Below, one piece after another: positions 2,384 through 20,910 of a DNA stretch of 64,000 nt. A program made the translations under genes and the position numbers. The notes below the pieces were generated by a model. The model ran no database searches. It was not told where the DNA came from and saw only the letters and a program-made list of their open reading frames with translations. Source of the stretch: Candidatus Gottesmanbacteria bacterium (GTDB lineage Bacteria > Patescibacteriota > Microgenomatia > UBA10105 > UBA927); the NCBI GenBank assembly GCA_963714095.1, contig OY970230.1, forward strand, positions 198,206 to 262,205, given 5' to 3'. Position 1 is the stretch's first letter; each line of letters begins with the position of its first letter.

Positions 2384-2944
2384 TCAAATGTTGAAGTGGG
2401 ACACCAGCCGCACGGTTTTAAGCCGCCGTTCCAACAACTGTTCAACATAGGAATCCAATGATCCTGTCGGGGGCCTGCGTCCCCGTTCCAAATATCCAAG
2501 CTCGCGAAGGAGGGCCGCGGCAAAACGCTCCCGAAGTACATCAATACGTTCACCTTTCACGGAGGAAAGAGCGGCAAGAGCATCGCAAAGAAGCAAAAAG
2601 ACATCTTCGTGCGCCTGCCCGGCTGGAAGTAATCCGTCAATAAGTTCGCACAGATAATAGGCGGCGCCGATGCGATGAAGATCCGACCGTACTCCTTGGT
2701 ATGAAGCAATCGGCGATACTTCCGTCAGGGTTTCCATCCCGCTTCCTATGTGGATCGTCGCAATAACGCGGTTAAATATCTCAATATGAGGTCCGCGTTT
2801 ACTGGATATTTTGCGTACCCCTTTTGCAAGCCACCGCATTTTGCCGGATTGTCTGGTAAATACCGTCAGAATTCTGTCTGCCTCGCCAACATTGTGTCGT
2901 TTGAGAATAACGCCTTCGACCGTATACACACGCGGAGGCGGCAT
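2384..2944 (-). CDS. recO: DNA repair protein RecO-like
   Basis: N-terminal OB-fold pattern EGVILKRHNVGEADRILTVFTRQSGKM, typical of RecO. It sits immediately upstream of glyQS, as in many bacteria. It is short (186 aa), so it may be a compact RecO. Confidence 0.6.
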   Translation of the reverse strand: MPPPRVYTVEGVILKRHNVGEADRILTVFTRQSGKMRWLAKGVRKISSKRGPHIEIFNRVIATIHIGSGMETLTEVSPIASYQGVRSDLHRIGAAYYLCELIDGLLPAGQAHEDVFLLLCDALAALSSVKGERIDVLRERFAAALLRELGYLERGRRPPTGSLDSYVEQLLERRLKTVRLVSHFNI

Positions 2945-2945
2945 G

Positions 2946-5646: not shown

Positions 5647-6729
5647 TCAGGTAAGATGCTCGTTTTGGGTACCCTTTAAACTTTCAACGAGTTTTTTAAT
5701 TTTCGGAACGGAGGATTTGTTGCAGACCAGAATCACATCGTTTGTTGCAACGATAAGGGCATCCTTCACGTCTATCGTCGTCACCAGCTGATCCGTGTAA
5801 TTATAGACCAATGAATCTTCCGTGTCCGTCAGGAGCACTTTTCCCTCCGTTACGTTTTTATCCGCAGCCTCCTCAAGCGCTTCTTTTAATGCTTCCCACG
5901 CCCCGATATCACTCCATCCGATATCCTCAGAAATAACATAGGCAGTAGACGGATTCAGATTTTCCAGAATCAGATTATCAAAACTGTTTTTTTCCAATGT
6001 AGGATAGACGCTGGCAAGCGTTTCCTCGAACCGATCTGTATGCCAGCTCTCGGAAATACGGGAAAGTCCCGCATATATATTCGGTGCAAACTGTTTATAT
6101 TGCGACCATAAAAATTGCGGCGTGGTGACAAAGTATCCTAGATTCCAAGCATGATGATCACTTTCAAAGTACCGTTTCGCTGTTTTTGCGTCAGGCCGGT
6201 ATTGACAGTCAACAAACGAATAAATTGGAATTTCGTTGGCGGTCATCATTCTTTTACCGTACTCAATCCACCCCAAATTTTCACTGGCAAACCGTGGTTT
6301 TTGCGCAACAAACACTATCCTGTTGGAATCTTTTTTTACAATTTCTCCTGCAGCAACAAGAATTTTCCGGAACAGTGCTTCCTTTTTTACCAAATGATCG
6401 CTCCACACAATGACCATAGGCTCCAGAGGAAAATCCCGGACAAGGAGTGACGTAATCAAACCAACCGCAGGCCCGACATCCCGCATCTCCGGCTCGCCTA
6501 TCACGTGATCAGGCGGCAATTCCCCTAATTGTTTTTGGACGATCGCAACATACGGCGCGCCCGTGGAAACATAGATGTCCTTCCATGAAAAGTCCGGCAG
6601 CAATCTGTTGGCTGCCAGCTGCAAGGTTGAGGAACTTCCTATAATTTTTTCAAACTGTTTCGGAGATTTTTTCCGGGAAAGCGGCCATAACCGCGTTCCC
6701 ACTCCTCCTGCAAAAATGACTGCTTTCAT
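5647..6729 (-). CDS. sugar-phosphate nucleotidyltransferase, mannose-1-phosphate guanylyltransferase-like
   Basis: N-terminal IFAGGVGTRLWPLSRKKSPKQF nucleotidyltransferase signature (GGxGTRLxPL). ~360 aa, without a cupin/isomerase domain. Confidence 0.7.
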   Translation of the reverse strand: MKAVIFAGGVGTRLWPLSRKKSPKQFEKIIGSSSTLQLAANRLLPDFSWKDIYVSTGAPYVAIVQKQLGELPPDHVIGEPEMRDVGPAVGLITSLLVRDFPLEPMVIVWSDHLVKKEALFRKILVAAGEIVKKDSNRIVFVAQKPRFASENLGWIEYGKRMMTANEIPIYSFVDCQYRPDAKTAKRYFESDHHAWNLGYFVTTPQFLWSQYKQFAPNIYAGLSRISESWHTDRFEETLASVYPTLEKNSFDNLILENLNPSTAYVISEDIGWSDIGAWEALKEALEEAADKNVTEGKVLLTDTEDSLVYNYTDQLVTTIDVKDALIVATNDVILVCNKSSVPKIKKLVESLKGTQNEHLT

Positions 6730-7817
6730 TGTATTTTTGTGGCGAGTCTTTCAACCGTGACCCGCATTTCTTTTTTAAATCTTTCTATACCAAAACGTTC
6801 TGCGTTAGCTCTGCATGAACCGCTATCATACCACCCTTTGTTAAATATATGCAAAGCGCGGATCAACGATTCTTTTGTCTGTGCATCAAACAAAATTCCT
6901 GTTTTCCCTTCGATCACAGTTTCCGCCATGCCGCTCTGTCGATAACAGATAACCGGCTTACCGCACGATTGTGCTTCAAGAGCGATTAAACCAAAATCCT
7001 CATCGCCTGCGAACACAAAAGCACGGCACCTTTGATAATAGGCAACAAGATCTGCGTCTGTCAAATAACGCGTAATAAAAGTGATATTATTTTTTGCCCT
7101 CCTCTGCAACACCCGATTGCCCAATCCGCTCCCGATAATTATGAGCGGCCAGCCAAGCTCGTTAAACGCATCAATGACGAGATCTATGCGCTTGTATGGG
7201 ACAAAGCGGGATACCAAAAGAAAATAATTTTCCTTATTCTTTGCAATTCTAAATGTATTCGTATCTATCGGAGGATAAATCACCGTATCGACGTTGCGAT
7301 GATAATATTTCTTTATACGATCCGCGACGTGGCTCGAAATAGTAATGTAATAATCAGGCCGGGAAGAGGCAATTAAATCCCACCGCTTCAGGGTTGGTGT
7401 AAACATTTTCAACATACGTGCGGATACATAATCGGCCCGTTCCATATAGGTCGAATTTCCGCTCCATAAATACCGTGTCGGCGTAAGGCAATAGCAAATA
7501 TGGACGGTGCCCGGCTTGGTAATGATGTTTTTGGCTTCGGCAGACGTCACTGATAGAACCACATCGTACGCGTCAAAAGAAAATGACTCAAACGCCATAG
7601 GGGTAAGCCACGGAAACAGTTCGTGATGCCTTTTTGCAAACGGCACATGCTGCAGAAACGAAGTGTGAACGTCAAAAACGTCTGCCCATGACGCACGGCG
7701 CGGATCATAGACTGCGGTAAAAAGAGGCGCGTCCGGCCAAATCTCATGAAGAGCGAGTAAGACTCGTTCCGCCCCGCCCCATTTATTAACCCGGTCGTAC
7801 ACCAGTGCAATTTTCAT
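6726..7817 (-). CDS. glycosyltransferase family 4 (GT-B)
   Basis: N-term MKIALVYDRVNKWGGAERV and C-terminal GLIALEAQSCGKPVICY donor-binding motif. 4-nt overlap with the downstream gene. Confidence 0.8.
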   Translation of the reverse strand: MKIALVYDRVNKWGGAERVLLALHEIWPDAPLFTAVYDPRRASWADVFDVHTSFLQHVPFAKRHHELFPWLTPMAFESFSFDAYDVVLSVTSAEAKNIITKPGTVHICYCLTPTRYLWSGNSTYMERADYVSARMLKMFTPTLKRWDLIASSRPDYYITISSHVADRIKKYYHRNVDTVIYPPIDTNTFRIAKNKENYFLLVSRFVPYKRIDLVIDAFNELGWPLIIIGSGLGNRVLQRRAKNNITFITRYLTDADLVAYYQRCRAFVFAGDEDFGLIALEAQSCGKPVICYRQSGMAETVIEGKTGILFDAQTKESLIRALHIFNKGWYDSGSCRANAERFGIERFKKEMRVTVERLATKIQ

Positions 7818-8271
7818 ATATTTTTAACGTATCACTCGCCATTTTGTGCCAGGAATATTTTTTCACAATACTTGAATCAACTGGTGGTCTTTTTTTTGCT
7901 GCACGGGTCAAAATTTTTGCAAGATCCTCTGCGCTGTGCGGATCAAAATAGATTGCACAGTTCCCGAGTATCTCATGAAACACAGGAATGTCGCTTACTA
8001 TCACGGGACAATTATTTGCAAGAGCTTCAAGGGCCGGAAGACCGAACCCTTCCATAAGCGAAGGAAACACGAGCGCCTGGGCATTTTTATATAACTCTGA
8101 AAGTTCTACGTCGGTTACGGTTTTGGGTTGTACCCCTAATCGTTTATAGAAAAAATCATCGTTCCCGACAAAAACAACCCGTACACCGGCCTTCAATGCA
8201 GCGCGCATAAGTAACTCCACATTCTTATGCGGGTATGCATTCCCCACGTATAAAAAATAGTTATCCTTCAT
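7786..8271 (-). CDS. GT4 C-terminal (donor-binding) domain only; half of a split GT4
   Basis: Begins YFLYVGNAYPHKNVELLMRA, the start of the GT-B C-domain. Contains EGFGLPALEALANNCPVIVSD. 161 aa. Its start overlaps the stop of the N-domain ORF (8261..8782) by 11 nt. Confidence 0.6.
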   Translation of the reverse strand: MKDNYFLYVGNAYPHKNVELLMRAALKAGVRVVFVGNDDFFYKRLGVQPKTVTDVELSELYKNAQALVFPSLMEGFGLPALEALANNCPVIVSDIPVFHEILGNCAIYFDPHSAEDLAKILTRAAKKRPPVDSSIVKKYSWHKMASDTLKIYENCTGVRPG

Positions 8272-8782
8272 AAATAACTTCTATCTGCTCGGACAACACA
8301 TCAAAATGATCAAGAATTTCTTTTTTCGTACTTTCCGAAACGGCAATTATTTTTTCGCTCCAGAAAATTGCTTTTAACAGAGAAATATAATATCCCAGGC
8401 GGCGGATTTTGTAGAAAACATACGACAGCGTCGTTGCTTTTCCTGTGTCAAAATGCAAAATCGTCAGGTCGTGGATGGTCACGATACATTTTCCGAAATA
8501 GAAAAGCGGGACATTAAAATAGGGAACATGCAAAAGATCGAGATGCTCACTGTTAAAAATCGCCGGCATGAACAGCTGTTCAGTGACACTATGCCATGGA
8601 ATGTCCGCTAACCGTTTCGTCCATCTGGCATTAGGCAATGCAAACGAATCAAACGCAGATTTCCGTAAAAAAACCACGTAGGAATTTTTATCATCAATCT
8701 TCCCCAATTCTGCAATAAGATTGCGGACATATCGTCCGACGCCGGTCTCGTTTACAAGACGTGCATCTATGCCTATCTTCAT
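8261..8782 (-). CDS. GT4 N-terminal (acceptor) domain only; half of a split GT4
   Basis: MKIGIDARLVNETGVGRYVRNL N-domain signature. Ends ...EQIEVIYEG immediately after the N-domain terminal motif. 173 aa. Confidence 0.6.
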   Translation of the reverse strand: MKIGIDARLVNETGVGRYVRNLIAELGKIDDKNSYVVFLRKSAFDSFALPNARWTKRLADIPWHSVTEQLFMPAIFNSEHLDLLHVPYFNVPLFYFGKCIVTIHDLTILHFDTGKATTLSYVFYKIRRLGYYISLLKAIFWSEKIIAVSESTKKEILDHFDVLSEQIEVIYEG

Positions 8783-9648
8783 ATAGAAAATTGTTTTAAG
8801 AAAAATAACCGCATCGAATAAAATAGATTAATGACGAGAGATACAACCGGTCCGTATTTTTTCGCATAATGTTTTTTGTAAAACAGCCAGTTATACTCAT
8901 GAAAATAAATCTCGGTTATAACCGCCCGCGAACGAAGAGCACTGCTTCTTCCGCTCTGCTTCTTCTTATGAAGGACTATCGCCTCCGGATTAAACCACAC
9001 TTCCCAACCCTTCTGTTTAAACCGGTACGCCCAATCGATATCCTCAGCATACATAAAATAATCTTCATCAAGGAGACCCACCTCATGTATTGCCTCACTC
9101 CTAGCAAAGAAAAATGCACCGCTCACGCAGTCCACCTGATGGGGAATCGTGATATTTTTGTACCCCATGTGATACTGCCCGAAGATGCGCGACTCTGGGA
9201 ATAATTTTTCAAGACCAATCATATACGTGAAAGCTGCCCACGGCGTCGGGAATCCCCTGTGGCACGCCGGATCCATCTTTCCGTTTGCCAATTCCAGCCG
9301 GCAGGTGGCAGCCCCCGCCTTCAGGTGCCCGTCCATAAACCGCAGCATCGCGCCGATGGAGCCCTCCCGGATCTCCGTATCTGAATTTAACAGTAAAATA
9401 TATTTTCCTTTGGCAATTTTTATCCCTTTGTTATTCGCTTTGGCAAACCCTAAATTCTTCGTGTTCAAAATGAGCCGTATGTCGGGAATCTTTTTGAATA
9501 GTTCCGTGCTTCCGTCGGACGACCCGTTATCTACCACGATAATTTCCAACACTACTCCTTCCGACCACTTCCGTATCGAGTCCAGACATGCCTTCGTCAT
9601 GTCTTTTGTGTTGTAATTGACAATAATAATGGAAAGCTCAGTGTTCAT
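8779..9648 (-). CDS. glycosyltransferase family 2 (GT-A)
   Basis: LSIIIVNYNTKDMTKACLDSI ... VVDNGSSDGS GT2 N-terminal signature. Confidence 0.8.
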   Translation of the reverse strand: MNTELSIIIVNYNTKDMTKACLDSIRKWSEGVVLEIIVVDNGSSDGSTELFKKIPDIRLILNTKNLGFAKANNKGIKIAKGKYILLLNSDTEIREGSIGAMLRFMDGHLKAGAATCRLELANGKMDPACHRGFPTPWAAFTYMIGLEKLFPESRIFGQYHMGYKNITIPHQVDCVSGAFFFARSEAIHEVGLLDEDYFMYAEDIDWAYRFKQKGWEVWFNPEAIVLHKKKQSGRSSALRSRAVITEIYFHEYNWLFYKKHYAKKYGPVVSLVINLFYSMRLFFLKQFSI

Positions 9649-10786
9649 ACGCTTCTATCCAAACTCTGTCCTGTTGTTGGGCTATCCTGTCCCACGAATA
9701 TTCTTTTTCTATAAGCGCACGGGCGTTATGTACGATATCCGCACGCTTTTTTGCGTCACGAAGTTTTACTATCGATTCCAAAATTTCATCAGTAGTATCG
9801 GCAACCAAAAAATGTTTTTCTGCTTCTCCCTGCATCCCCGCGATTCCCAAAGAAGAAGCTACAACCGGCAGTCCTGCTGCCATCGCTTCCAATATTTTAT
9901 ATTTTGTCCCGCCCCCGATACGTATAGGAGCCAGCATAATGTCTGCACCGTTGAGTTCATCCTGAATACTGTCTACGCTGCCGGCATAATACGGACCGCG
10001 CGGAGCATATTTACCCACGATACGAAGCTGAGCGTCGGGGTACACTTTGCCAATCGCTGGCCAAATATCATGGATAATGTACTGGGCTGCGTCCCTGTTT
10101 TCCATCCACCGGAAATTCCCGACATATAAAAATTTTGGATTTTTGGACATTATTTTTTTCGGACGGAATGCAAACGCCTTCGTATCTACGCCGTTGGGCA
10201 CGACGGAAACATTGGGCTGCCCTATATACGACCGGTCACTTTCCGACACGGAAATTATCTTTGTTGCCTTTCTCCACACATGCCGTTCCCACAATTTCAT
10301 TTTTATGACATCGCGTAAAAGCAGCGGCCGCAGTACACCGATTTTAAATTTCCTCACATAGGATTCATACACGGTATGTTCAATGTTATGTTCGGCTACA
10401 ACTATAGGAATACGGTGCTCCGTCGGAATCGAGGGCCATACGTATCCCGGCTCGATATGGATACAATCATAGTTACCCATGGAAATCTCATCAGATAAAA
10501 GCGCAAGCATCTCACTGTTATGATAACTTTGCCATAATAACGGGTATGAACCGATCATGGATTTTAATAGATATTTCGGCTGCCACACGCGTCCGCGGTG
10601 TACCGTTGTGACACTTTTACAAAATGACAATTCCGGCAAGTATTTCTTTTCACTTTCTGACCGGATAAACGAATAAAGATGGATCTCGTGTATTCCCGCG
10701 AGGCGTTTCAGTAAATTATATATGCGGATCTGACCTCCGGAGTACAGCGGGTATGGCAATATTGCTGATACGAATAAAATCTTCAT
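9638..10786 (-). CDS. glycosyltransferase family 4
   Basis: MKILFVSAILPYPLYSGGQIRIYNL N-domain and KYKILEAMAAGLPVVASS C-domain motif. Confidence 0.8.
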   Translation of the reverse strand: MKILFVSAILPYPLYSGGQIRIYNLLKRLAGIHEIHLYSFIRSESEKKYLPELSFCKSVTTVHRGRVWQPKYLLKSMIGSYPLLWQSYHNSEMLALLSDEISMGNYDCIHIEPGYVWPSIPTEHRIPIVVAEHNIEHTVYESYVRKFKIGVLRPLLLRDVIKMKLWERHVWRKATKIISVSESDRSYIGQPNVSVVPNGVDTKAFAFRPKKIMSKNPKFLYVGNFRWMENRDAAQYIIHDIWPAIGKVYPDAQLRIVGKYAPRGPYYAGSVDSIQDELNGADIMLAPIRIGGGTKYKILEAMAAGLPVVASSLGIAGMQGEAEKHFLVADTTDEILESIVKLRDAKKRADIVHNARALIEKEYSWDRIAQQQDRVWIEAYEH

Positions 10787-10790
10787 GAAT

Positions 10791-12236
10791 TTACTTTGCC
10801 GCAGCAGGTGTCGCTTCTTTTGGCTTTGTTAAATCAATGATTGCAAATGTATCGTTCCGTACTAATACCGTGTACTTTGCGGCAAGGTCGCGGGTCTCAG
10901 TATCGGCATCGGTTGGTGACACGGTGACGTATGCAGTTGCTCCCATGGCGATTTTCTTATCGATATCAAACCCCTCGGGCCAACCCTGACGCTGGGTCTG
11001 ATACAAAAATGTCGTGTCTCCGTTATATGGCGCTATCACTTTGGCATCTTTCGGAAGTATAGCGTCGGCGGCTTTCCCCGCCGCAACAATTTCAGGATGA
11101 TTAATCCAATAATATGTCCGTATCGTAAACCATGAAAAACCGAGCGCCGCGGCTATACTTAGAATCGCGACGATAATCCCGGGAATTTTCATTCTGAACA
11201 GTGATACGAAGCCTTTCGCGGTATAAATCGCGACAACCGGAAGAATAAGAATTTGATAATAATCATGCTGGACGTTGCCTGTGGCAAAAATAATAAAATA
11301 CAGAAGAGTTCCGACGGCTAACCATCGGAAAATCCATCCTTCTTTTTTATCCGCAGATGACGCCAGGCCTAAACCGAACGGGATAAGCCCCCAGAATCCG
11401 AGGATAAGATCTCCCAAACGGGTCGCAAAAAGCCAGTGAAACCATGCGCCTTTGAAGCGGATACCGTTGCCGTTTAATAACCATGTACTTGCCGGAATGC
11501 CTTCCGGAAATTGAAGTATCCAGCGGCGCCATAATAAAAGTGGGATCACCGAAATAGTGCCGTACAGAAGGTATTTAAAAAATGTTTGTTTCGAAATACC
11601 AGATTGCCTAAAAATAATATACGGGATGGGAATAAGAAGAAATACCGCCATGGGTTTAGACAACAATGCCAATGCGCCTGCAATAGCGCTGACAATGACC
11701 CAGCGAAAATTTTTCCTCCGCCCGACCAGCCACAAACTCAACACGGACCAGAATACCATCTGCGGATCCGGCAGTATGGTTCTGCCGTAGTACATACTGT
11801 ACGGCAGTACAGCAAAAAGAAATGCAGCAAACAAACCGGTAACAGGGTCAATATATTGGGCTACCAATAGTCCTAAGACAACCGTTGTTCCGGCGGATGC
11901 CGCGATCGTCACGATTCGGAGCCACACTTCAATCGGAATCTTCGGAATACTCAATTTGCCCAATACCGCAATAACCTGATAGATCGGGAATTCCACCATC
12001 CGCCAGCCCTGCGGGTTATCTTTACCGGATTGAATGTTCGAGAGGTCATCATATCTCGGGTGTAGTGGGTCTATCCCGAACCGCAAAAAATTCCGGGCAA
12101 CAGCAGCGGTATCGGCCTGGCGCCAACTATGCCAGTCCGCGACCGGATACGTAATATGGTATAACCGCACACCACAAGCCGCCACGCCAATACAAAACAA
12201 AAGGGGAATAAAATATTTAGCGATAAATTTTCCCAT
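10791..12236 (-). CDS. GT-C fold membrane glycosyltransferase, GT39/ArnT-like
   Basis: Polytopic, about 11 predicted helices. First loop WHSWRQADTAAVARNF...RYDDLS has the acidic DD motif. YSMYYGRTILPDPQMVF resembles the ArnT/PMT family. Confidence 0.6.
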   Translation of the reverse strand: MGKFIAKYFIPLLFCIGVAACGVRLYHITYPVADWHSWRQADTAAVARNFLRFGIDPLHPRYDDLSNIQSGKDNPQGWRMVEFPIYQVIAVLGKLSIPKIPIEVWLRIVTIAASAGTTVVLGLLVAQYIDPVTGLFAAFLFAVLPYSMYYGRTILPDPQMVFWSVLSLWLVGRRKNFRWVIVSAIAGALALLSKPMAVFLLIPIPYIIFRQSGISKQTFFKYLLYGTISVIPLLLWRRWILQFPEGIPASTWLLNGNGIRFKGAWFHWLFATRLGDLILGFWGLIPFGLGLASSADKKEGWIFRWLAVGTLLYFIIFATGNVQHDYYQILILPVVAIYTAKGFVSLFRMKIPGIIVAILSIAAALGFSWFTIRTYYWINHPEIVAAGKAADAILPKDAKVIAPYNGDTTFLYQTQRQGWPEGFDIDKKIAMGATAYVTVSPTDADTETRDLAAKYTVLVRNDTFAIIDLTKPKEATPAAAK

Positions 12237-12239
12237 ACA

Positions 12240-15233
12240 TTATTTTTCGACTTTCATAAGCTGTTTCAACTGATAGTTTTCGAAAATAAATCTCTCCGCT
12301 GCAAACCCTACTTGTACTGGCGTGCTATATGCGGCTTCAGGCGTTGAAACGTTTGTCGTCGTATACCCATATGCATTCAACCGGAAAATATGCCACAAAG
12401 GATCCGCTAACCCTGTCGGGAAAATCCACGCGCGCCCGTACCTGATTGGCGTATTGATAAATATGAAACTGGTATATTGCCGAAGCGGGAAAAATTGCTT
12501 ACTTAAAGCAAGAAGTGTATTCTGGGAAACGGAACTTGCTTTTTTCCAATCAGTACTCAAACGCCCGATTTCCGACACATTCCATACGATAAGTCCTGCG
12601 ATTGCGGCAACGACAACGAATTTCACGGCGGCCTGCCGTGAGCGTTTCCACCATACAGATATCCCCGTACCCAGTGCCACAATAAAAAATCCGCTCGCGG
12701 CAAACACGTACCGTTCACTCATGTTTCCCAACCCGATAAATGCCAAAAGTGCAACGAAGCCGCATAATGCCCAGAAAAACACTGCGCGGTACGCGGCAAC
12801 GCGGCGCCAAACTTTCCATACGCATGCGGCAACGCCACCGATAAGCAATAACCCAGTCCCCACGGCAATCATGCGATGAATCCGCAGATACTCCCGCAGT
12901 ATTCCCCAGGATTCAATGACGCGGGTTCCGAAAAAGGTTGAGACGACATAGCCGACGGTGTTTCCGATAACGTTAAACGGCAACGTCGAGAGTTTGTAGC
13001 CATAATCTCCTGATGGAGGCACAGCACCCGAAGCAGTCCTGACAATCCAATACAGCGGTATTGCTATCAAAGGTAAGAACGTTGTCCAGTGGCGTTTACC
13101 CAGTATTACCCACGCAACGAGACAGTAAATAAGAGGCGCGACGATCATCCCATCATATGAGAGCATAGCGGACACGAGTAAAAGGAGTGACGCACAATAT
13201 ACTACCCATTTACCCCATGTAGGGCGCCGTCCGTACATCACCAAAAGAACGATACTGCCGAACAAACTGGCTGCAGAAAGTAAACTGCTCTGCCCTGAAA
13301 TCCAAAAAACATTTTCGTTGTGTATGGCAAGTGAAGTAAAGAGCAAGGCAAAAACCAGCGCTACCCAACGTTTGACGTCCGTCAGAACCAGCAGAAGATA
13401 CACAAAATACGCGCTTACGGCCAAAAGCAGGTACGACAAGAAGTGATACCCTTCGGGCTTCAGCCAAAACACCGCATACAGGACAAAATACCAAAACTTC
13501 GGTATCGGACGATAAAAAAATCCCTGGGCATTCGTAAAGTACGAAAGCAAACCCGAGAACGGCGTACTGGCTGCCCACCGCAGCCAGGTAAAATCATCCG
13601 CGACGAAATAGTTAGAAATGGAAGAACCGAAAAGCACAATGGCTGCCAGAAATAAATACATGGCATATGCGATATCATGCGTTAATGCGCGCCACATCAG
13701 TCTCATATAATCCGTAAACCGAAATTCAACCGTCGTAAGGAGTGCAAGCGCGACTCCAAGGAGTAACCATAACGTAAAGGCCACCTTCGACGCTTCAAAC
13801 ACGTCAATAAGAATCCCGTTAAATATTAAACCCGTGAGACCTCCGAATACGCCGACAACAAACGCCTTCTGATATCCGACGAGCGTTTCTTTCCGCCTGA
13901 AAAATATAACATAGGCGGCAAGAAGTATCCCTAAAAACGCAACAGTTCCCAATATGCCGGTTTCACCCAGCATCCTGACATAATCGCCGTCGGATGCCAC
14001 TGATAGCGTCGAATAGCCGCTCCCCAACAGGATATTCCGTTTGAAAGCGGTCATTGCTAGAGGCCACTCCCCCTGCAGACGCGTCGTGATGGAAATGTCA
14101 TAAACGAGCGCCTTCTGGATGAGGAAGCTTCCGGAAACCGTAGCGATTTCTCCCGTTCCGCTTTCGAGACTCACGCTGGTGTAAGAAATCGTCTTTACCT
14201 GGCTCGAAGCCGAAGCAGGCGCCTGCGACGCAGGCAAACCGATATATTCACTTCCTGTCGGCAAATTTTCCACAGCCGGAGATGCAGACTGCTGAACAAC
14301 CGCAGTTGTCCCTTCGAGGGACGCAAGTGTCCCGACCGGTTTACCGGTAGACAAATCCACAATGACGTCATTATATCTGAATGTTTTATAAAACCGATCC
14401 GATGCACCATTAAAAAAATTCAGCAGGAAAAAACTGAAGAGTATAACCGGAATGATAAACCATTTCTTTTTATACCAAAAAAGCATCACGCTTATCGCGA
14501 CAAGATACACGAGAAACGACGTCCGTGATTGTGTGAGAAACAGCATGACGAGCGATCCGACGGACACCATGAAAAATATAATTTTCTGCCACAGTTTATT
14601 GGCCGCAAATACAAACGCGGTAAGAATCGGAACGGTGAAAACGACAAATGCAGCAAGATCATAATGTCCTCCAAAGGTTGAAGGGATGCGCGCCGTAGGC
14701 GGAAGACGAAGCGGTATTCCCTTTGCGAACTGCTCGTTCATCGTCAAAAATGCCGGCCAGCCGAAAAATTTTTCACCAAGTCCGTATACGATAATGCCTA
14801 CTGTTGTTCCCACAAGCGTCCAGATGACCGCCGTAACCAACGACTTCTTCCTGGCAACGACGTCAAATGCTATAAAAAACAGCATCATGTATTCTATCCG
14901 CCGGAGCCAATGCAGCAAAACAAGATGGGGGAAATACCCGACAAGCTTTGGACCGATAAAAATCATGGAAAAGACAGCCGAAATAAGGCCGACGCCCCAA
15001 AAAACAAGAATCGGCCATGTAAGCGGCGTTTTCGGAATATGACGCTGCTGTAGGCGCAGCAGAACATACACACCAACTGCAGCCGCAACAAAAAAATCTT
15101 CCAGGCGTATATAAACAAACGTCCGGATAACATTAATAAGCGGCAACTTCGGATAGAGCGGAATAAACGCCAAAAAAAACAATATCGTCAGTCCGCCGAT
15201 GTTACTGGTTAACCAATGCAAGGCCTTCTTCAT
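12240..15233 (-). CDS. large membrane protein: O-antigen ligase/polymerase-like (Wzy_C) N-half fused to GT-C-like C-half
   Basis: N-half has about 12 TM with LFLTQSRTSFLVYLVAISVMLFW, the O-antigen ligase SR motif. C-half has an additional multi-TM domain starting near FVADDFTWLRWAA (DD loop motif as in GT-C enzymes). 997 aa. Confidence 0.5.
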   Translation of the reverse strand: MKKALHWLTSNIGGLTILFFLAFIPLYPKLPLINVIRTFVYIRLEDFFVAAAVGVYVLLRLQQRHIPKTPLTWPILVFWGVGLISAVFSMIFIGPKLVGYFPHLVLLHWLRRIEYMMLFFIAFDVVARKKSLVTAVIWTLVGTTVGIIVYGLGEKFFGWPAFLTMNEQFAKGIPLRLPPTARIPSTFGGHYDLAAFVVFTVPILTAFVFAANKLWQKIIFFMVSVGSLVMLFLTQSRTSFLVYLVAISVMLFWYKKKWFIIPVILFSFFLLNFFNGASDRFYKTFRYNDVIVDLSTGKPVGTLASLEGTTAVVQQSASPAVENLPTGSEYIGLPASQAPASASSQVKTISYTSVSLESGTGEIATVSGSFLIQKALVYDISITTRLQGEWPLAMTAFKRNILLGSGYSTLSVASDGDYVRMLGETGILGTVAFLGILLAAYVIFFRRKETLVGYQKAFVVGVFGGLTGLIFNGILIDVFEASKVAFTLWLLLGVALALLTTVEFRFTDYMRLMWRALTHDIAYAMYLFLAAIVLFGSSISNYFVADDFTWLRWAASTPFSGLLSYFTNAQGFFYRPIPKFWYFVLYAVFWLKPEGYHFLSYLLLAVSAYFVYLLLVLTDVKRWVALVFALLFTSLAIHNENVFWISGQSSLLSAASLFGSIVLLVMYGRRPTWGKWVVYCASLLLLVSAMLSYDGMIVAPLIYCLVAWVILGKRHWTTFLPLIAIPLYWIVRTASGAVPPSGDYGYKLSTLPFNVIGNTVGYVVSTFFGTRVIESWGILREYLRIHRMIAVGTGLLLIGGVAACVWKVWRRVAAYRAVFFWALCGFVALLAFIGLGNMSERYVFAASGFFIVALGTGISVWWKRSRQAAVKFVVVAAIAGLIVWNVSEIGRLSTDWKKASSVSQNTLLALSKQFFPLRQYTSFIFINTPIRYGRAWIFPTGLADPLWHIFRLNAYGYTTTNVSTPEAAYSTPVQVGFAAERFIFENYQLKQLMKVEK

Positions 15234-16071
15234 ATATTGTGACCAAATCCTGCTTTCCGAGGATTTTACCGATACTAATTGAAACGGTCGCCTTAACCGT
15301 CAACATAAATTTTAACACAGATACCTCCTGCGGTGTTTTGTGCTTCCGATAAAAATACAGAAGCCCGCGGAATATATTTGCCACTGGCGCCCGCTTATTG
15401 CCGCTGGAAGCGGCACCGGTATGAATAAAGCGCGCGTCAGGAGTAAAAAAGACGGAATATCCTTTTCGAGCCGCACGATAGAGAAATTCTATCTCATCCA
15501 TATACATAAATATCCCCTGATCGAATAACCCCACATCATAAAAAGAGTCCCTAGTGCCGAGTAAACATGCTCCTGACACCCAACCAACACGCCTCGTATG
15601 GTCCGGCGAATACCGGGTTATCGATATCTTATCTCCGCGGCAAAACAACATGAGAAATATATACCAAAGGGAAAACTCGGGCCCGCAGGACGGCTGAAGC
15701 GATCCATCCTCGTTGTAGAGTTTTCCTCCGACGAAAGATTTAGGATGTGCCAGAGCAAATTCATATAATTTTTCAAAAGCACCATTGAGCGCATCGATAT
15801 CGGAATTGAGCATAAGAACATAGGTCCCCTTCGCAATATGAAGACCCATGTTATTGGCGGTACCATAACCTACATTTTCCTTATTGAGTATTTTTATTAC
15901 CTGAGGAAATTGTGTATTCAACATCGCAACAGAACCGTCACGGGACGCATTATCGACAACAATGATTTCATATGTCAACTTGGAATGTTTAAGAGTCTCA
16001 ACGATTGACCGCAGACACCGCCCCGTCAAGTGTTTAGTGTTAAAACTGGGGATAATAATTGATAGATCCAT
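15202..16071 (-). CDS. glycosyltransferase family 2
   Basis: LSIIIPSFNTKHLTGRCLRSI ... IIVVDNASRDGS. Confidence 0.8.
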   Translation of the reverse strand: MDLSIIIPSFNTKHLTGRCLRSIVETLKHSKLTYEIIVVDNASRDGSVAMLNTQFPQVIKILNKENVGYGTANNMGLHIAKGTYVLMLNSDIDALNGAFEKLYEFALAHPKSFVGGKLYNEDGSLQPSCGPEFSLWYIFLMLFCRGDKISITRYSPDHTRRVGWVSGACLLGTRDSFYDVGLFDQGIFMYMDEIEFLYRAARKGYSVFFTPDARFIHTGAASSGNKRAPVANIFRGLLYFYRKHKTPQEVSVLKFMLTVKATVSISIGKILGKQDLVTIYEEGLALVNQ

Positions 16072-16074
16072 ACG

Positions 16075-16638
16075 TCACTGGAAGAGCCTCGAAAACTTCA
16101 GCGTATAGTGAAGATTTTTCGACCGGTCTCGGATATGGCTAGCCGGGACCCCCCCGACCACTTCGTAGTCTCCCACGTCTTTGGTGACGACTGCCCCGGA
16201 TGCTATGACTGCCCCGCGTCCTACATGGACACCGGGTAAAATCGTAACTCTCGTTCCTATGACTGCATAATCATCGATAACAACCGGCGCCGCGACTTCG
16301 ACAAAATCCGGGCTATCTATATCATGCTCCATGGTGTAAATGCGTACTTCACCGGCAATCGACACATTATTGCCTATTTTTAATGGGTGTCCATTCGATT
16401 TTAGATAGGTAACGAAATTTTTCATCCGGCCGTCTAAAAATGCATCATTACCTATCACGGTATTGTGCCCTATCGCGACACCCGCCGGCTGATTAAACTC
16501 CGCACGCCAGTGAATAGAAGAGTCCTTTCCGATTTTAATCCGGAAGAGTGTCCGGTAAAGAAATAAACGAATCGTATGACTCGGAATATAGCCGGTAAGC
16601 GTACAAAGATATACCCAAAAATCTATGAGTGCCCTCAT
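16075..16638 (-). CDS. hexapeptide-repeat (LbH) sugar O-acetyltransferase
   Basis: Hexapeptide repeats: IGNNVSIAGEVRIY ... VTILPGVHVGRGAVIASGAVVTKDV. Start trimmed to MRALIDF. That ATG overlaps the upstream GT4 stop (ATGA at 16635-16638). Confidence 0.75.
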   Translation of the reverse strand: MRALIDFWVYLCTLTGYIPSHTIRLFLYRTLFRIKIGKDSSIHWRAEFNQPAGVAIGHNTVIGNDAFLDGRMKNFVTYLKSNGHPLKIGNNVSIAGEVRIYTMEHDIDSPDFVEVAAPVVIDDYAVIGTRVTILPGVHVGRGAVIASGAVVTKDVGDYEVVGGVPASHIRDRSKNLHYTLKFSRLFQ

Positions 16639-17768
16639 ACTTTGCCTCCCACTTTTTCCAATACCTCCAGTGTCTGTTGTGCCGCTTTTTCCCATGTAAA
16701 TTTTTTCACCTGTGCAAGTCCCGCGTCCACACGCTGCCGCCCTTGTATCAGGTTTCTCTGCCGTACTGCCGTAAGAAGCCCGGCAGCGATACTTTCTGCA
16801 CTACCCGCGTCCACATAAATCCCTGCCCTGCCAGCTATCTCAGGAAGACTGGAAACGTTCGAAACGACTACTGGGCATTTATACGCCATCGCCTCCAGAA
16901 CCGGAAGCCCAAACCCTTCGTACAGGCTCGGGAGAGCAAAACAGAGCGCATGTTTGTAAAAAGACGGAAGTTCACCATCAGGCACAAAATCCAAAAATTT
17001 TACGCTCTGAATGACTCCGAATTTTTTCGGAGCGGCAAGGATATCCTCATACAGCCAACCCTTTTTCCCGATGATGACAAGCTGAAGATCGGAGAACTTC
17101 TGCTTATTGGTTCCGATAAACCGTGCAAACGCCTCGATGAGCTTCACATAATTTTTTCTTGGCTGAATCGTGCCTACAGATAGGATAAAATTCCTGCTCA
17201 TATCGTATTTTTTTGTCAACGTTTCAATTGGAACAGAGGAAGTCGTTTTTTTATCCATAGTGAAACCGGGATACATCACAAAAACCCTATCCCCGGATAC
17301 GTGATATTGCCTAATTATAGCATTTTTGCTGAACTCGCTTATCGTCAGTATCCTTGCCGCATGTGCGACTCCATACCCTGTCCATTGCTTCAGCTGATAC
17401 AGATCCTTCGGTTTAAACATTTCGGGATACAACAGGTACGACAAATCCATAATCGCCATCACCCTGGGAACGCGTACAAAACGGGGTATATAGTGCGTCG
17501 GAGAAAACATAACATCAAGTGCAGGCTCCTCTTTCCGAATCGCCAGAGGCAATCCCACCAACGTCCATAATTTCGACGGTCTGCATACGCGATACTGCCA
17601 GTACCTCGTTTCTTTCGGCATATCATTTTGCGCAGACCCGGGCAAAAACACAGTTACGTTGTGCCCAGCCATGAGCGGATAAAGATGCACAAGAATTTCG
17701 TACGCGTACCGGCCGATACCCACGCGGTTAACGACATTTGCTTCATACCCGTCGATTCCTATATTCAT
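16635..17768 (-). CDS. glycosyltransferase family 4
   Basis: MNIGIDGYEANVVNRVGIGRYAYEIL N-domain and EGFGLPVLEAMAYKCPVVVSNVSSLPE C-domain. Confidence 0.8.
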   Translation of the reverse strand: MNIGIDGYEANVVNRVGIGRYAYEILVHLYPLMAGHNVTVFLPGSAQNDMPKETRYWQYRVCRPSKLWTLVGLPLAIRKEEPALDVMFSPTHYIPRFVRVPRVMAIMDLSYLLYPEMFKPKDLYQLKQWTGYGVAHAARILTISEFSKNAIIRQYHVSGDRVFVMYPGFTMDKKTTSSVPIETLTKKYDMSRNFILSVGTIQPRKNYVKLIEAFARFIGTNKQKFSDLQLVIIGKKGWLYEDILAAPKKFGVIQSVKFLDFVPDGELPSFYKHALCFALPSLYEGFGLPVLEAMAYKCPVVVSNVSSLPEIAGRAGIYVDAGSAESIAAGLLTAVRQRNLIQGRQRVDAGLAQVKKFTWEKAAQQTLEVLEKVGGKV

Positions 17769-18325
17769 AATGAAAACCCCGGATATATAACGTGGAGTTT
17801 GCTTTCAGGAATGTGCAACAGCTCCATAATGTCTTTTTTTGTCGATTCACTGTCACAAAAAATGGCTGCGCATTCTTTTTTCACCCACCTGAGCCTCCGT
17901 GCATGCGTAGCCACAATACCCATATCCATTTCCTTTAGAAAACGTATCGTCGAAAGATCATGAACGGTTGTCACACCTTTTGCATGGAATAGCGGCGGCT
18001 GCGTCCAATCGCTGCTCCAAAAAACATCCAACGGCCCGGTAAATGTTTCAACAGGCAGAACATGAAAACTGTTCCACATGATGTCCAAGAGTTTCGGCGG
18101 AAGAGGAATCCTCTTTAATTCTACATTTGGATTTATCTTCCTCATTTCCTGAAAAAACTCTTCAAATATATGTTTTTTCCGGAGTGATGCGCCGAATAAA
18201 ACATATGTATTTCCCTTATCAATTTTTAAAAGCGTTTTAACCATGCGCCGGACATAGGCTGCCACTCCGGTGCCCTCGTAGACTATCTGGCTGATATCTA
18301 TTCCGATACGCATATACCCTATCAT
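17765..18325 (-). CDS. stand-alone GT4 N-terminal domain protein (truncated or orphan)
   Basis: RIGIDISQIVYEGTGVAAYVRRMV N-domain signature. Terminates at ...KLHVIYPGFSL, the N-domain end. Its stop overlaps the start of the next complete GT4 (ATGA). Confidence 0.5.
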   Translation of the reverse strand: MIGYMRIGIDISQIVYEGTGVAAYVRRMVKTLLKIDKGNTYVLFGASLRKKHIFEEFFQEMRKINPNVELKRIPLPPKLLDIMWNSFHVLPVETFTGPLDVFWSSDWTQPPLFHAKGVTTVHDLSTIRFLKEMDMGIVATHARRLRWVKKECAAIFCDSESTKKDIMELLHIPESKLHVIYPGFSL

Positions 18326-18326
18326 C

Positions 18327-19940
18327 TCATTTTTCAGGTAAATAATACAAAAACTCCTGTGCTTTTGCCCGTTGCTGTTGTGTTAACCCTGATACTAAAG
18401 ACTTTTTTATATAGAGACATGTAGGTTTTCCTTCCGAATACCACTGTGCATAGAAAGGTAAAAATTGGGACGGAAAACGCGGATGAACCGGTGCGTCCGG
18501 AGTGCAAAAATCATACAGGATATCCGGCGGATCATGGGTAAACATATCGATCATGGCGTTATAATATTTATCTTTAAATCGGATCGGGTAGTAAAACGAA
18601 TATGAATAAGAAGAACTCCTGCCTGATGCGACATACAAAAACTCATCCGCTCCGTTGGTAAAAAGCGTTTGCTGAGGCACAGTTACTGCTTTAATAACTT
18701 CACTTATCTGCAAATAATTCCCGTAATTGGTGATAAACTCCGTCTGCTCGTCAACGTGCTGGTAGATGAAAGATCGCGGAGAAAATAACACGTAGGCAAC
18801 TAAGCACCCTATGATAATAAAAAATATGTATCGTTTACGGACTACCCAAAGCATTTCATAAAAAAGATACAACGACGAAAACAGGAAAATACCATACCAG
18901 TTTATTTCGTGAAACGCTTCAAAATATTGCAAACCCGGAATTGCAGGCCGGAGATTTGCCAAACCCAAAACAATAAAAAGGAATCCCAATACCCACATGT
19001 TTTTCTTTGTTTTCAGCCACAGAAAAACAGAAAAACCAAAAACGACAGTCAAACATATCAATTGAATACGAAAATCATTCCACCTTCCGGCAATAAGAAT
19101 ATAGAGGGGGTAAAAAAATGACTTAACGACGCCGGTACCGAAAAAATGACCCGCTTGCAGCTCGCTGGGTAATCCTGTCTGTAAATTCAGGGTAATAACA
19201 TTATAAACAAAATCACGGACAGGAAACAATATGAATAATCCCGCGGTTAAAATAAAAAATATAGCGAGGGCGATTTTACCGACATTTTTGAAAAACACAG
19301 GGCGGATAATAATGCCAAAAAGAAATATCGCTACCAACACGTACGGTTCTCGCATAAACACAACAAACCATAGACACAGGGCTGTTAAAACGATCTCCCA
19401 ATGGAACACAGGTTTCTTGCGGAGCGTATGCAATCCCAAACCGGTTAGGTACACGAGGGGATATACGATAAAACCTTCAGCCAGAAACCTATCACCAAAA
19501 ACATAAAATTTTGAAAATTCATATAAGAGTGTATATGCAAATCCGGTTATTCCGAACCTCCAACAGATAAAAACGTCAAAAACAAATCCAAACACTAATA
19601 AAAACTGCCGGTGTTGCAATAACAATGCATATATATTAACCGGATGCCCATAGTGCTGAATAACCAAACTAAGATATGCCATAAGCGGCATGTGGTTAAA
19701 GTAAATTTGTGAATACAGTTGCTTGCCCTTCCCAATAAAATATCCGCCAACATAGTTAAAACAGTCATCGAAACAACCAAACGCATTAATTTTCGGAATA
19801 TAGATCTTATAAAGAAAATAATACACAGGGATAAGAAGAATAAACCAGATCGTCAGGCGTACTAACGGATGTGATAAAACGGCGTTCCATGCAAAAGCAT
19901 TATTCTTTTTTTGCATAAGGATCAGGGGAATAACCATCAC
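18327..19940 (-). CDS. polytopic membrane protein, GT-C-like (hypothetical)
   Basis: About 12 hydrophobic helices. Early loop CFDDCFNY acidic motif. The 5' end overlaps galE, so the true start may be an internal Met. Confidence 0.35.
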   Translation of the reverse strand: MMVIPLILMQKKNNAFAWNAVLSHPLVRLTIWFILLIPVYYFLYKIYIPKINAFGCFDDCFNYVGGYFIGKGKQLYSQIYFNHMPLMAYLSLVIQHYGHPVNIYALLLQHRQFLLVFGFVFDVFICWRFGITGFAYTLLYEFSKFYVFGDRFLAEGFIVYPLVYLTGLGLHTLRKKPVFHWEIVLTALCLWFVVFMREPYVLVAIFLFGIIIRPVFFKNVGKIALAIFFILTAGLFILFPVRDFVYNVITLNLQTGLPSELQAGHFFGTGVVKSFFYPLYILIAGRWNDFRIQLICLTVVFGFSVFLWLKTKKNMWVLGFLFIVLGLANLRPAIPGLQYFEAFHEINWYGIFLFSSLYLFYEMLWVVRKRYIFFIIIGCLVAYVLFSPRSFIYQHVDEQTEFITNYGNYLQISEVIKAVTVPQQTLFTNGADEFLYVASGRSSSYSYSFYYPIRFKDKYYNAMIDMFTHDPPDILYDFCTPDAPVHPRFPSQFLPFYAQWYSEGKPTCLYIKKSLVSGLTQQQRAKAQEFLYYLPEK

Positions 19941-20910
19941 GATGATTTTTATGCCATTTCCAGGCAGATGAAACGATAGTTTCTATATCTGAGTATTTTG
20001 GCCGCCAGCCGAATTCTTTCTTAAAATGTGTGGAGTCTGCAACGAGACTGTGCGGATCACCCGCCCGCCGCGGTGCCTCCCGCACGGCAAAATCTACCCC
20101 GGTCACCTTTTTAACCTCCGCGACAACTTCCTTATTTGTCATCCCATCCCCTGTTGCGAGGTTATATACGTCGGTTTTATGACCATGAGTTAATGCGTCC
20201 AGCGCCAATAAATGCGCCTCCGCAAGGTCCTCAATATGAATGTAGTCCCGCAGACACGACCCGTCGCGCGTCGGATAATCAGTTCCATACAGCAAAAATT
20301 CTTTCTGCTTTCCCATAGCCACACGGATCGCAACCGGAATAATATGTGTTTCAGGGAGATGATCTTCGCCGTTATCACCGCCCAGCGCTGCACCGCATGC
20401 ATTAAAATACCGGAGACTGATACTTCTTATATGATGCTGATAATCCGTCACGCGTAATAGCTCCTCGAAACACCATTTCGACAGCCCGTACGGGCTCGTG
20501 GGATTTTTTGCATGACTCTCCGGTATCGGAATAATTGTCGGATTTCCGTAGACGGCGGCAGTGGAAGAAAAAATAATTGTATCAACCCCATGCTCCTGCA
20601 TCACAGCGAGGAGTGTCATGGGCGCAATAATATTATTTTTCATGTATTTAATAGGATCCCGGACGGATTCTTCCACCATGAGGTATCCGGCAAAATGGAT
20701 GACTGCTTCAATCGAATATTTTGAAAAAATCGGCTCGAGCGTTGCTTTATCTTTAATATTACCCACGATAAGAGGCACCGTGGCCGGTAACGCCTGCCTG
20801 TGGCCGTATTCGAGGGAATCCACGACGATCGGGTGGTAGCCCCGCGCAACAAGCATCCGCACCATATTGCTTCCGATATAGCCGGCGCCTCCGGTAACAA
20901 GCACGTTCAT
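19900..20910 (-). CDS. galE: UDP-glucose 4-epimerase
   Basis: MNVLVTGGAGYIGSNMVRML Rossmann motif and YGLSKWCFE catalytic YxxxK. Length 336 aa, typical of GalE. Confidence 0.8.
   Translation of the reverse strand: MNVLVTGGAGYIGSNMVRMLVARGYHPIVVDSLEYGHRQALPATVPLIVGNIKDKATLEPIFSKYSIEAVIHFAGYLMVEESVRDPIKYMKNNIIAPMTLLAVMQEHGVDTIIFSSTAAVYGNPTIIPIPESHAKNPTSPYGLSKWCFEELLRVTDYQHHIRSISLRYFNACGAALGGDNGEDHLPETHIIPVAIRVAMGKQKEFLLYGTDYPTRDGSCLRDYIHIEDLAEAHLLALDALTHGHKTDVYNLATGDGMTNKEVVAEVKKVTGVDFAVREAPRRAGDPHSLVADSTHFKKEFGWRPKYSDIETIVSSAWKWHKNHRDGYSPDPYAKKE

Follow-up and report, generated by a model that had tools for sequence, protein, structure and literature searches.

A stretch of 64,000 nucleotides from the genome of an uncultured, groundwater-type bacterium, Candidatus Gottesmanbacteria (contig OY970230.1, positions 198,206 to 262,205; hereafter the window) encodes on its reverse strand a protein, referred to here as N1, that consists solely of the N-terminal, acceptor-side Rossmann domain of a family 4 glycosyltransferase (GT4). 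Its gene lies immediately upstream of a gene encoding a complete two-domain GT4, N2–C2. Sequence comparisons indicate that N1 is a real, selected gene, translated separately and not a pseudogene, and that it is linked to N2–C2 in evolution and usually in translation as well. Our best overall explanation, to which we give a slightly better than even chance, is that N1 stems from a full-length enzyme, N1–C1, that lost its C-domain by deletion, and that it would now act as an acceptor-side subunit working with N2–C2.

A stand-alone GT4 N-domain beside a complete GT4

The longest open reading frame (ORF) covering N1, 17765..18325 on the reverse strand, comprises 186 codons from its first ATG. Homologs and the public gene call of an identical protein start at the second methionine (MRIGIDISQ, ATG at 18313), which gives the 182-residue protein considered here (17765..18313). 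Apart from a sub-threshold NAD_binding_1 match, the Pfam scan of N1 detected a single family, PF13439 (Glyco_transf_4; profile positions 3–166 of 170, E = 1.5e-10, 41.8 bits for a cut-off of 28.5). It detected no C-domain family, the C-terminal PF00534 domain with its EX7E motif being absent from the polypeptide, and no match to DUF1975; N1 is a single domain. The chain ends with HVIYPGFSL and stops three residues past YPG, at the interdomain linker, which bears out the original prediction that this ORF encodes only a GT4 N-domain. Since the donor-binding domain and the EX7E motif are missing, N1 alone cannot be a glycosyltransferase. The AlphaFold2 (AF2) model of N1 is that of a confident, complete domain, which begins with strand β1 at residue 2 and displays neither an N-terminal helix nor a membrane anchor. 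Comparison of the N1 sequence profile with the PDB gave no match, and NCBIfam returned no family for N1 and none above cut-off for N2–C2.

The TGA stop codon of N1 (17767..17765) overlaps the ATG (17768..17766) of the downstream gene, forming an ATGA sequence (17765..17768, reverse strand), a translational coupling signal. This downstream gene (16635..17768, reverse strand) encodes the 377-residue N2–C2 protein, the constant neighbor of N1, in which Pfam recognizes both PF13439 and PF00534 and whose best 120 homologs are at least 61% identical to it over the full length. The coupling to a complete GT4 that had been read from the sequence is thus confirmed. N1 and the N-domain of N2–C2 share only 23% identity. 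Finally, the identical 182-residue N1 protein is found on at least three independently assembled contigs, which excludes an assembly error.

Conservation of N1 and of its neighborhood

The N1 family gathers 854 matches in a search of 5.8 billion proteins and, therefore, N1 is not a chance ORF. The best 120 clusters (57–100% identity) all consist of proteins of 171–198 residues that contain PF13439 only, and their named members belong to Candidatus Gottesmanbacteria, of the Microgenomates group (Patescibacteria, or candidate phyla radiation, CPR). The 37 orphans aligned from these 120 clusters all end one to three residues after YPG.

We retrieved 80 species-level genome loci of about 20 kb each and classed every ORF in them by hidden Markov models of N1, N2, C2 and the two halves of a split GT4 (see below). 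With the window and a few redundant copies included, 85 loci contain an N1-type ORF, which in 81 of them is an orphan devoid of a C-domain. The same orphan is thus present in related loci, representing about 77 non-redundant species (Gottesmanbacteria, Levybacteria and other Microgenomates), and these DNA-level loci exclude a gene-calling error behind the homologs. N2–C2 accompanies the orphan in 78 of the 81 loci, directly downstream on the same strand in 75 and adjacent in divergent orientation in three (L027, L028 and L049); two loci are cut by contig ends. Strict co-occurrence and adjacency of N1 with a catalytic GT4 holds with one exception, L064 (3337–3888), which is alone, among the loci with sufficient flanking DNA, in not having N1 beside N2–C2: the orphan is followed by unrelated glycolytic genes on the opposite strand, assigned by eye as enolase-like and phosphoglycerate-kinase-like, and N2–C2 is not nearby. 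This arrangement indicates that N1 can persist away from its usual neighbor. In a reverse search of metagenome contigs with N2–C2 as a query, N1 or N1–C1 was found upstream in all 20 assessable loci, as an orphan in 6 of them and as a full-length or contig-truncated N1–C1 in 14.

N1 and N2–C2 overlap or are separated by at most 12 nt in 61 of the 81 orphan loci, and the four-nucleotide ATGA overlap itself is found in 37. The junctions range from −7 to +12 nt, to which insertions of 35–1642 nt must be added. As the overlapping ATGA sets the two frames one base apart, a programmed −1 frameshift or readthrough at this site could be imagined to yield a three-domain N1–N2–C2 protein. We hold this to be highly improbable: the junctions vary over the range just given, three loci have the genes in divergent orientation, the next stop codon lies two codons past the TGA, and no fused homolog of about 560 residues occurs among the matches listed.

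Diverse ORFs are found at the N1/N2 junction. In L022, an ORF that looks by eye like a GIY-YIG nuclease (10549–10900) lies between N1 and N2–C2; in L019, N1 is followed by an ORF of at least 128 residues, counted from stop to stop (5653–6036), which by eye resembles a four-helix-bundle protein; in L047, a 1.6-kb gene for a GT-C-like membrane protein (2470–4098) is inserted just after N1. With such small selfish-looking or unrelated genes, the junction seems to be an insertion hot spot. Note that, among L007–L081, many records are entitled 'uncultured Gammaproteobacteria bacterium' for assemblies that carry this Microgenomates-type cluster, and that single records bear odd titles referring to Bathyarchaeia (L075), Clostridia (L079) or Acidobacteria (L015); these titles are probably placeholders or mis-binned labels. 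The organism names given here follow the public records, some of which are plainly not to be trusted.

Selection and retained residues

The ratio of nonsynonymous to synonymous substitution rates (dN/dS), determined on ten informative close pairs, is 0.06–0.23 for N1, 0.10–0.22 for N2 and 0.03–0.15 for C2. Mean pairwise identities over 69 species are 54.5% for N1, 55.6% for N2 and 59.4% for C2. By these measures, N1 is under purifying selection as strong as that exerted on its intact neighbor, and the two domains of the latter diverge no faster or slower than N1 does. Mirror-tree style correlations (0.59 for N1–N2, 0.51 for N1–C2 and 0.71 for N2–C2) were not taken into account, since they result mainly from shared phylogeny. 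The lack of a donor-binding domain with EX7E counts in favor of a decaying pseudogene, of the remnant of a recent partial duplication or of an assembly or frameshift artefact. The chances of such an explanation are nonetheless minimal in view of the dN/dS values, the uniform truncation point in all the aligned orphans, the number of species concerned, the occurrence of the identical protein in independent assemblies, the low identity with the neighbor's N-domain and the completeness of the modeled domain. Moreover, N1 is not fused to a C-domain through any frameshift, and the residues conserved in the N-domain are preserved.

At 25 positions, the residue that is at least 95% conserved in the orphans is also at least 80% conserved in the full-length N1–C1 relatives; these positions include D6, S8, Q9, G16, V17, S101-D102-W103, T115, D119, S155, T158 and D161. 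The orphans have thus kept the loop at G16, together with the stretch around the near-invariant TTIHDL motif (T115, D119), in which H118 is at least 90% conserved. The sole position conserved in the full-length enzymes but given up in the orphans is T21; conversely, C153 and the terminal P178-G179 have become fixed in the orphans. In the AF2 model, the conserved residues are located at the strand C-termini and in the loops that follow, on the side that faces the interdomain cleft in GT-B enzymes. In GT4 enzymes, the glycine loop and the His-Asp motif line the donor/acceptor cleft. From this model, N1 retains the appearance of the acceptor-side half of a functional active site.

Origin of N1

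In a search of 1.84 billion representative proteins, the N1 relatives above about 55% identity are about 180 residues long, and those at 40–51% identity are mostly full-length GT4s of 340–390 residues with an N1-type N-domain. The C-domains of these full-length N1–C1 relatives resemble C2 of the window's N2–C2, whereas their N-domains bear no resemblance to N2. The EX7E motif is present in 86 of 99 full-length relatives, so that the ancestor was a normal enzyme.

In the four remaining N1-type loci (L078, L079, L083 and L084), the N1 domain is followed by a C-domain in a full-length N1–C1 protein of 374–401 residues, and the gene order is that observed in the ingroup, namely N1–C1, N2–C2, an acyltransferase, a GT2, a membrane protein, a PMT-like protein, a GT4 and a GT2. 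N1–C1 also lies beside N2–C2 in the outgroup loci L092–L107, where the genes that follow keep this order, and the ATGA sequence is found at the N1–C1/N2–C2 junction in the outgroup loci L078 and L083. Since the positional orthologs of N1 in the outgroups are full-length N1–C1 proteins, N1 reflects the loss of a C-domain and not the duplication of an N-domain. A recent partial duplication is likewise excluded by the low identity between N1 and the N-domain of its neighbor, so that the remnant of a partial tandem duplication initially envisaged has to be abandoned. The shared ATGA junction points to a deletion of C1 as opposed to its relocation. It is very likely, as far as sequence comparison can tell, that N1 derives from the upstream member of an ATGA-coupled tandem pair from which C1 was removed by an internal deletion, and that it has been under selection; an internal deletion in an old tandem pair, with the junction left in place, is the simplest reading. 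On a neighbor-joining tree, the orphans fall into two clades of 70 and 9 members (the latter Levybacteria-type) and a singleton, with very short branches splitting these groups from a few full-length proteins; judging from this tree, C1 may have been lost between one and three times.

Possible roles of N1

A functional coupling of N1 to N2–C2 is, in our opinion, probable. N1 would keep its GT4 acceptor-side role by binding an acceptor, linked to a lipid or a glycan, along the edge of its β-sheet that faces the cleft, and would do so as a subunit together with the co-translated N2–C2. In the version that we prefer, N1 would build a composite active site with a donor domain provided in trans, most plausibly the C2 domain of its neighbor: one donor domain serving two acceptor domains would make C1 dispensable, and a borrowed C2 would explain how C1 could be lost with every conserved N1 residue kept. 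We slightly prefer such a composite site to a non-catalytic helper because the glycine loop and the His-Asp motif have been retained. Taken by itself, the use of a C-domain in trans for catalysis by N1 is a tentative proposal, whose chances we put somewhat below even. A bolder form of it, which we view as rather unlikely, is a 'time-shared' GT-B enzyme, in which C2 would close in turn on N2, to which it is covalently linked, and on the free N1, two different glycosyl transfers being performed by three domains. If true, this would be a protein-level counterpart of the shared exons of the vertebrate UGT1 locus and a case of domain-level genome streamlining in CPR bacteria, and the recent fission of another GT4 of the window (7786..8782, see below) would add a further free C-domain to the pool in the window's subclade.

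Several points weigh against a partnership of this kind. C2 is covalently tied to a strongly conserved N2, with which N1 would have to compete. A GT-B N-domain is normally completed by a C-terminal cross-over helix, which N1 lacks. The title of PDB entry 6ldq describes an engineered, isolated N-domain of a related enzyme with that very helix appended, and a compensating C-terminal extension of N2–C2 after the loss of C1 was looked for and not found. The genes are divergent in three loci, split by insertions in some and apart in L064, indicating that coupling in cis is not obligatory. The conservation of the cleft residues is just as compatible with a non-catalytic role in acceptor binding. Finally, the search for a free C1 was confined to the 64-kb window and the ~20-kb loci; phmmer comparisons with all window ORFs found no free C-domain other than the one encoded by 7786..8271 (see below), and none was found in the loci. 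A different relationship, in which N2 would be degenerate and replaced by N1, was considered on the grounds that N2 has a methionine where N1 and the N-half of the split GT4 have a conserved histidine (IMDLS versus HDL). It was rejected, as the same methionine is present in outgroup N2 domains that coexist with an intact N1–C1 and as N2 has dozens of invariant residues.

Instead of completing an active site, N1 could be a non-catalytic accessory subunit that binds the acceptor or the membrane and presents the acceptor to N2–C2, or that stabilizes N2–C2, in the way that GtfA is helped by GtfB or Alg13 is recruited by Alg14. Its constant adjacency and frequent translational coupling to N2–C2 are consistent with such a role, as is the fact that no free C-domain is on hand in most genomes of the clade, as far as the loci examined are concerned; there is also the precedent of a glycosyltransferase paired with a chaperone of glycosyltransferase fold (PMC6973325). 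N1 is basic (mean isoelectric point of 9.0), as membrane-facing GT4 N-domains are; note that we discarded charge as a sign of a membrane-anchoring role, since N2 and the split N-half are basic as well, which makes it uninformative. On the other hand, essentially all the residues conserved in N1–C1 have been kept in N1, including the glycine loop and the His-Asp motif, whereas in a pure scaffold one would expect the constraint on some of them to have been relaxed. We consider the accessory role somewhat unlikely, and keep the composite site as our working proposal.

Breaks at the interdomain linker

The window harbors a second GT4 interrupted at the linker, encoded on the reverse strand by two ORFs that overlap by 11 nt. 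The first (8261..8782) codes for a 173-residue N-half that contains PF13439 only, ends with VIYEG and, within the window, is the paralog closest to N1; the second (7786..8271) codes for the 161-residue C-half of the same enzyme, which contains PF00534 only and is the only free donor-side domain in the 64 kb. BLASTP aligns N1 and this N-half to their very ends (HVIYPG and EVIYEG, 32% identity, E = 7e-19), in keeping with the prediction that both chains break at the same position. The two halves display the same 11-nt overlap in the window, L001 and L002, and are also separate ORFs in L005, L007 and L020; their ortholog is a single ORF of 350–383 residues in L021, L060, L062, L082 and many other loci. 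Compared to the fused forms, the split forms lack about 15 linker codons and have undergone a change of frame. A dedicated C-half is thus encoded beside its N-half, as in split GT-B heterodimers, and the comparison of loci indicates that 7786..8782 is a separate, younger and true fission that has kept both halves, in the manner of Alg14/Alg13 but within GT4. The original prediction took the two broken GT4s as a sign of biology as opposed to random decay; this part stands, given the conservation across species and the purifying selection, but the two breaks are different kinds of event.

The existence of this pair raises the possibility that N1 itself is half of a split enzyme, the other half being a relocated C1 or, in this subclade, the product of 7786..8271 shared with its own N-half. 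The GT4s of the cluster do tolerate fission at exactly this linker (7786..8782, and the N2/C2 split of L008 described below), no other paralog in the window is closer to N1 than the split N-half, and split GT-B enzymes are known, namely Alg14/Alg13 and EpsE/EpsF (PMC8993221). Nevertheless, the ortholog of 7786..8782 is still fused in most orphan-bearing genomes and so is not a general partner, the window and the loci offer no other free C-domain, and the shared ATGA junction indicates deletion, not relocation, which makes this explanation improbable.

Other breaks were observed. In L008 (991–3156), the neighbor enzyme is interrupted at the same linker, with overlapping ORFs for N2 (2012–2593) and C2 (2563–3156), and an unrelated ORF of about 165 residues lies between N1 and N2; the N2/C2 break could reflect either a sequencing frameshift or a fission, which would be the third independent one. 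In L010, two overlapping ORFs (20055–20515) share the free C-half of the split GT4 between them, which could correspond to further decay in one lineage or to a sequencing error. Altogether, the interdomain linker of these GT4s appears to be a recurrent, tolerated break point. Note that two PDB entries, 2f9f_A (177 residues, 'first mannosyl transferase wbaZ-1') and 5i45_A (218 residues), match only the C-domain part of the N2–C2 profile. Being of about one-domain length, they may be natural half-size GT4s or truncated constructs, and they bear on the frequency of half GT4 genes.

Cluster context

The stretch between N2–C2 and the split GT4 (8779..16695, reverse strand; assigned from Pfam and from the called genes of related contigs) is conserved. 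It encodes, all on the reverse strand, an acyltransferase (16075..16695), a GT2 (15202..16071), a 997-residue membrane protein (12240..15233), a PMT-like GT-C (10791..12236), a GT4 (9638..10786) and a second GT2 (8779..9648), and the same order follows N1(–C1) and N2–C2 in both ingroup and outgroup loci. The 997-residue protein is about twice as long as its outgroup homologs (472–494 residues in L083 and L084), and its N-terminus shows a weak likeness to IctB/O-antigen-ligase-type proteins (30 bits, far below cut-off), which suggests a fusion or an internal duplication within the very clade from which C1 was lost. The cluster closes, next to the GT4 genes, with a gene (5647–6729, reverse strand) that by its sequence looks like one for a mannose-1-phosphate guanylyltransferase-type nucleotidyltransferase, a hint that GDP-mannose may be the donor for at least some of the cluster enzymes.

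Directly upstream of N1, the gene at 18327–19940 (reverse strand) encodes a 537-residue multi-pass membrane protein without Pfam or NCBIfam match; taken from the GTG listed as its start, this gene shares 41 nt with the preceding epimerase gene. As just 6 of the 85 loci have a homolog of it upstream of N1, we rejected this protein as a conserved partner of N1 and regard it as a recent addition to the cluster.

Comparison with known systems

The fold and the family of N1 are those of an ordinary GT4, and both split GT-B enzymes and helpers of glycosyltransferase fold are already known. GT-B glycosyltransferases normally have their two domains on one chain; to our knowledge, the only well-known exception is the Alg14/Alg13 (EpsE/EpsF) lineage, in which both halves have been kept. 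In N1, one half has persisted for long without its own other half, with its conserved residues kept, beside a complete paralog in almost every genome. If N1 contributes to catalysis, then donor and acceptor modules of GT-B enzymes would be combinable non-covalently in nature, with consequences for glycosyltransferase engineering and for the domain economy of very small CPR genomes; if it is accessory, then it would be a minimal pseudo-enzyme helper derived from a tandem paralog. As regards annotation, neither such 'partial GT4' genes of 180 residues nor the pair of overlapping half-genes at 7786..8782 should be called pseudogenes or merged as frameshifts.

N1 shares the GT4-type N-terminal Rossmann-like domain (PF13439/PF13579) with ordinary GT4 enzymes (GT-B, retaining; e.g. 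MshA, WaaG, WbnH and PimB'), from which it differs by the lack of the donor domain, of EX7E and of the C-terminal cross-over helix. In Alg14/Alg13 and the bacterial or archaeal EpsE/EpsF, the N-half and the C-half of a GT-B enzyme are two proteins (PMC8993221). The likeness lies in the division of a GT-B enzyme at the interdomain linker into separately translated parts, an arrangement that the pair 8261..8782/7786..8271 reproduces within GT4. In contrast to Alg14 and EpsE, N1 belongs to GT4/PF13439 and not to the Alg14/GT28 type, and has no N-terminal membrane anchor; it also has no dedicated C-half partner gene, its neighbor being complete, and it arose by deletion, not by fission. From the Alg14-like subunit proposed originally, the idea of a stand-alone subunit therefore survives, Alg14 itself providing only an analogy, with no homology, no membrane anchor and no adjacent Alg13-like free C-half.

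GtfA/GtfB associates a catalytic GT4 with a non-catalytic partner of glycosyltransferase fold that binds the acceptor (PMC6973325). As with N1, a paralog-derived, non-autonomous partner is encoded beside an active GT4 and co-occurs with it, but GtfB has both Rossmann domains plus DUF1975, whereas N1 is a single domain without DUF1975 that keeps the cleft residues of its active relatives. The vertebrate UGT1 enzymes offer a conceptual likeness, in that several acceptor-side domains use one donor-side domain, as in the borrowed-C2 proposal: their acceptor domain comes from the first exon and their UDP-sugar domain from the shared ones. At the UGT1 locus, many alternative first exons are joined to the shared downstream exons (PMC1885805). 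There, sharing is achieved by splicing into one polypeptide, in family GT1, whereas the proposed sharing of C2 with N1 would be non-covalent.

In the literature, we found no description of a complete GT4 N-domain that is conserved alone, with no C-half of its own, across a large clade and always beside a full-length paralog. The nearest case is EpsFN of Streptococcus thermophilus 05-34, an 87-residue N-terminal fragment of a rhamnosyltransferase, which is expressed and whose overexpression changes the size of the polysaccharide (PMC7023835). EpsFN is, like N1, a naturally truncated N-terminal glycosyltransferase piece; however, it is strain-specific, covers only part of a domain and is 99% identical to the intact gene, pointing to a recent truncation, whereas N1 is a complete domain found in dozens of species.

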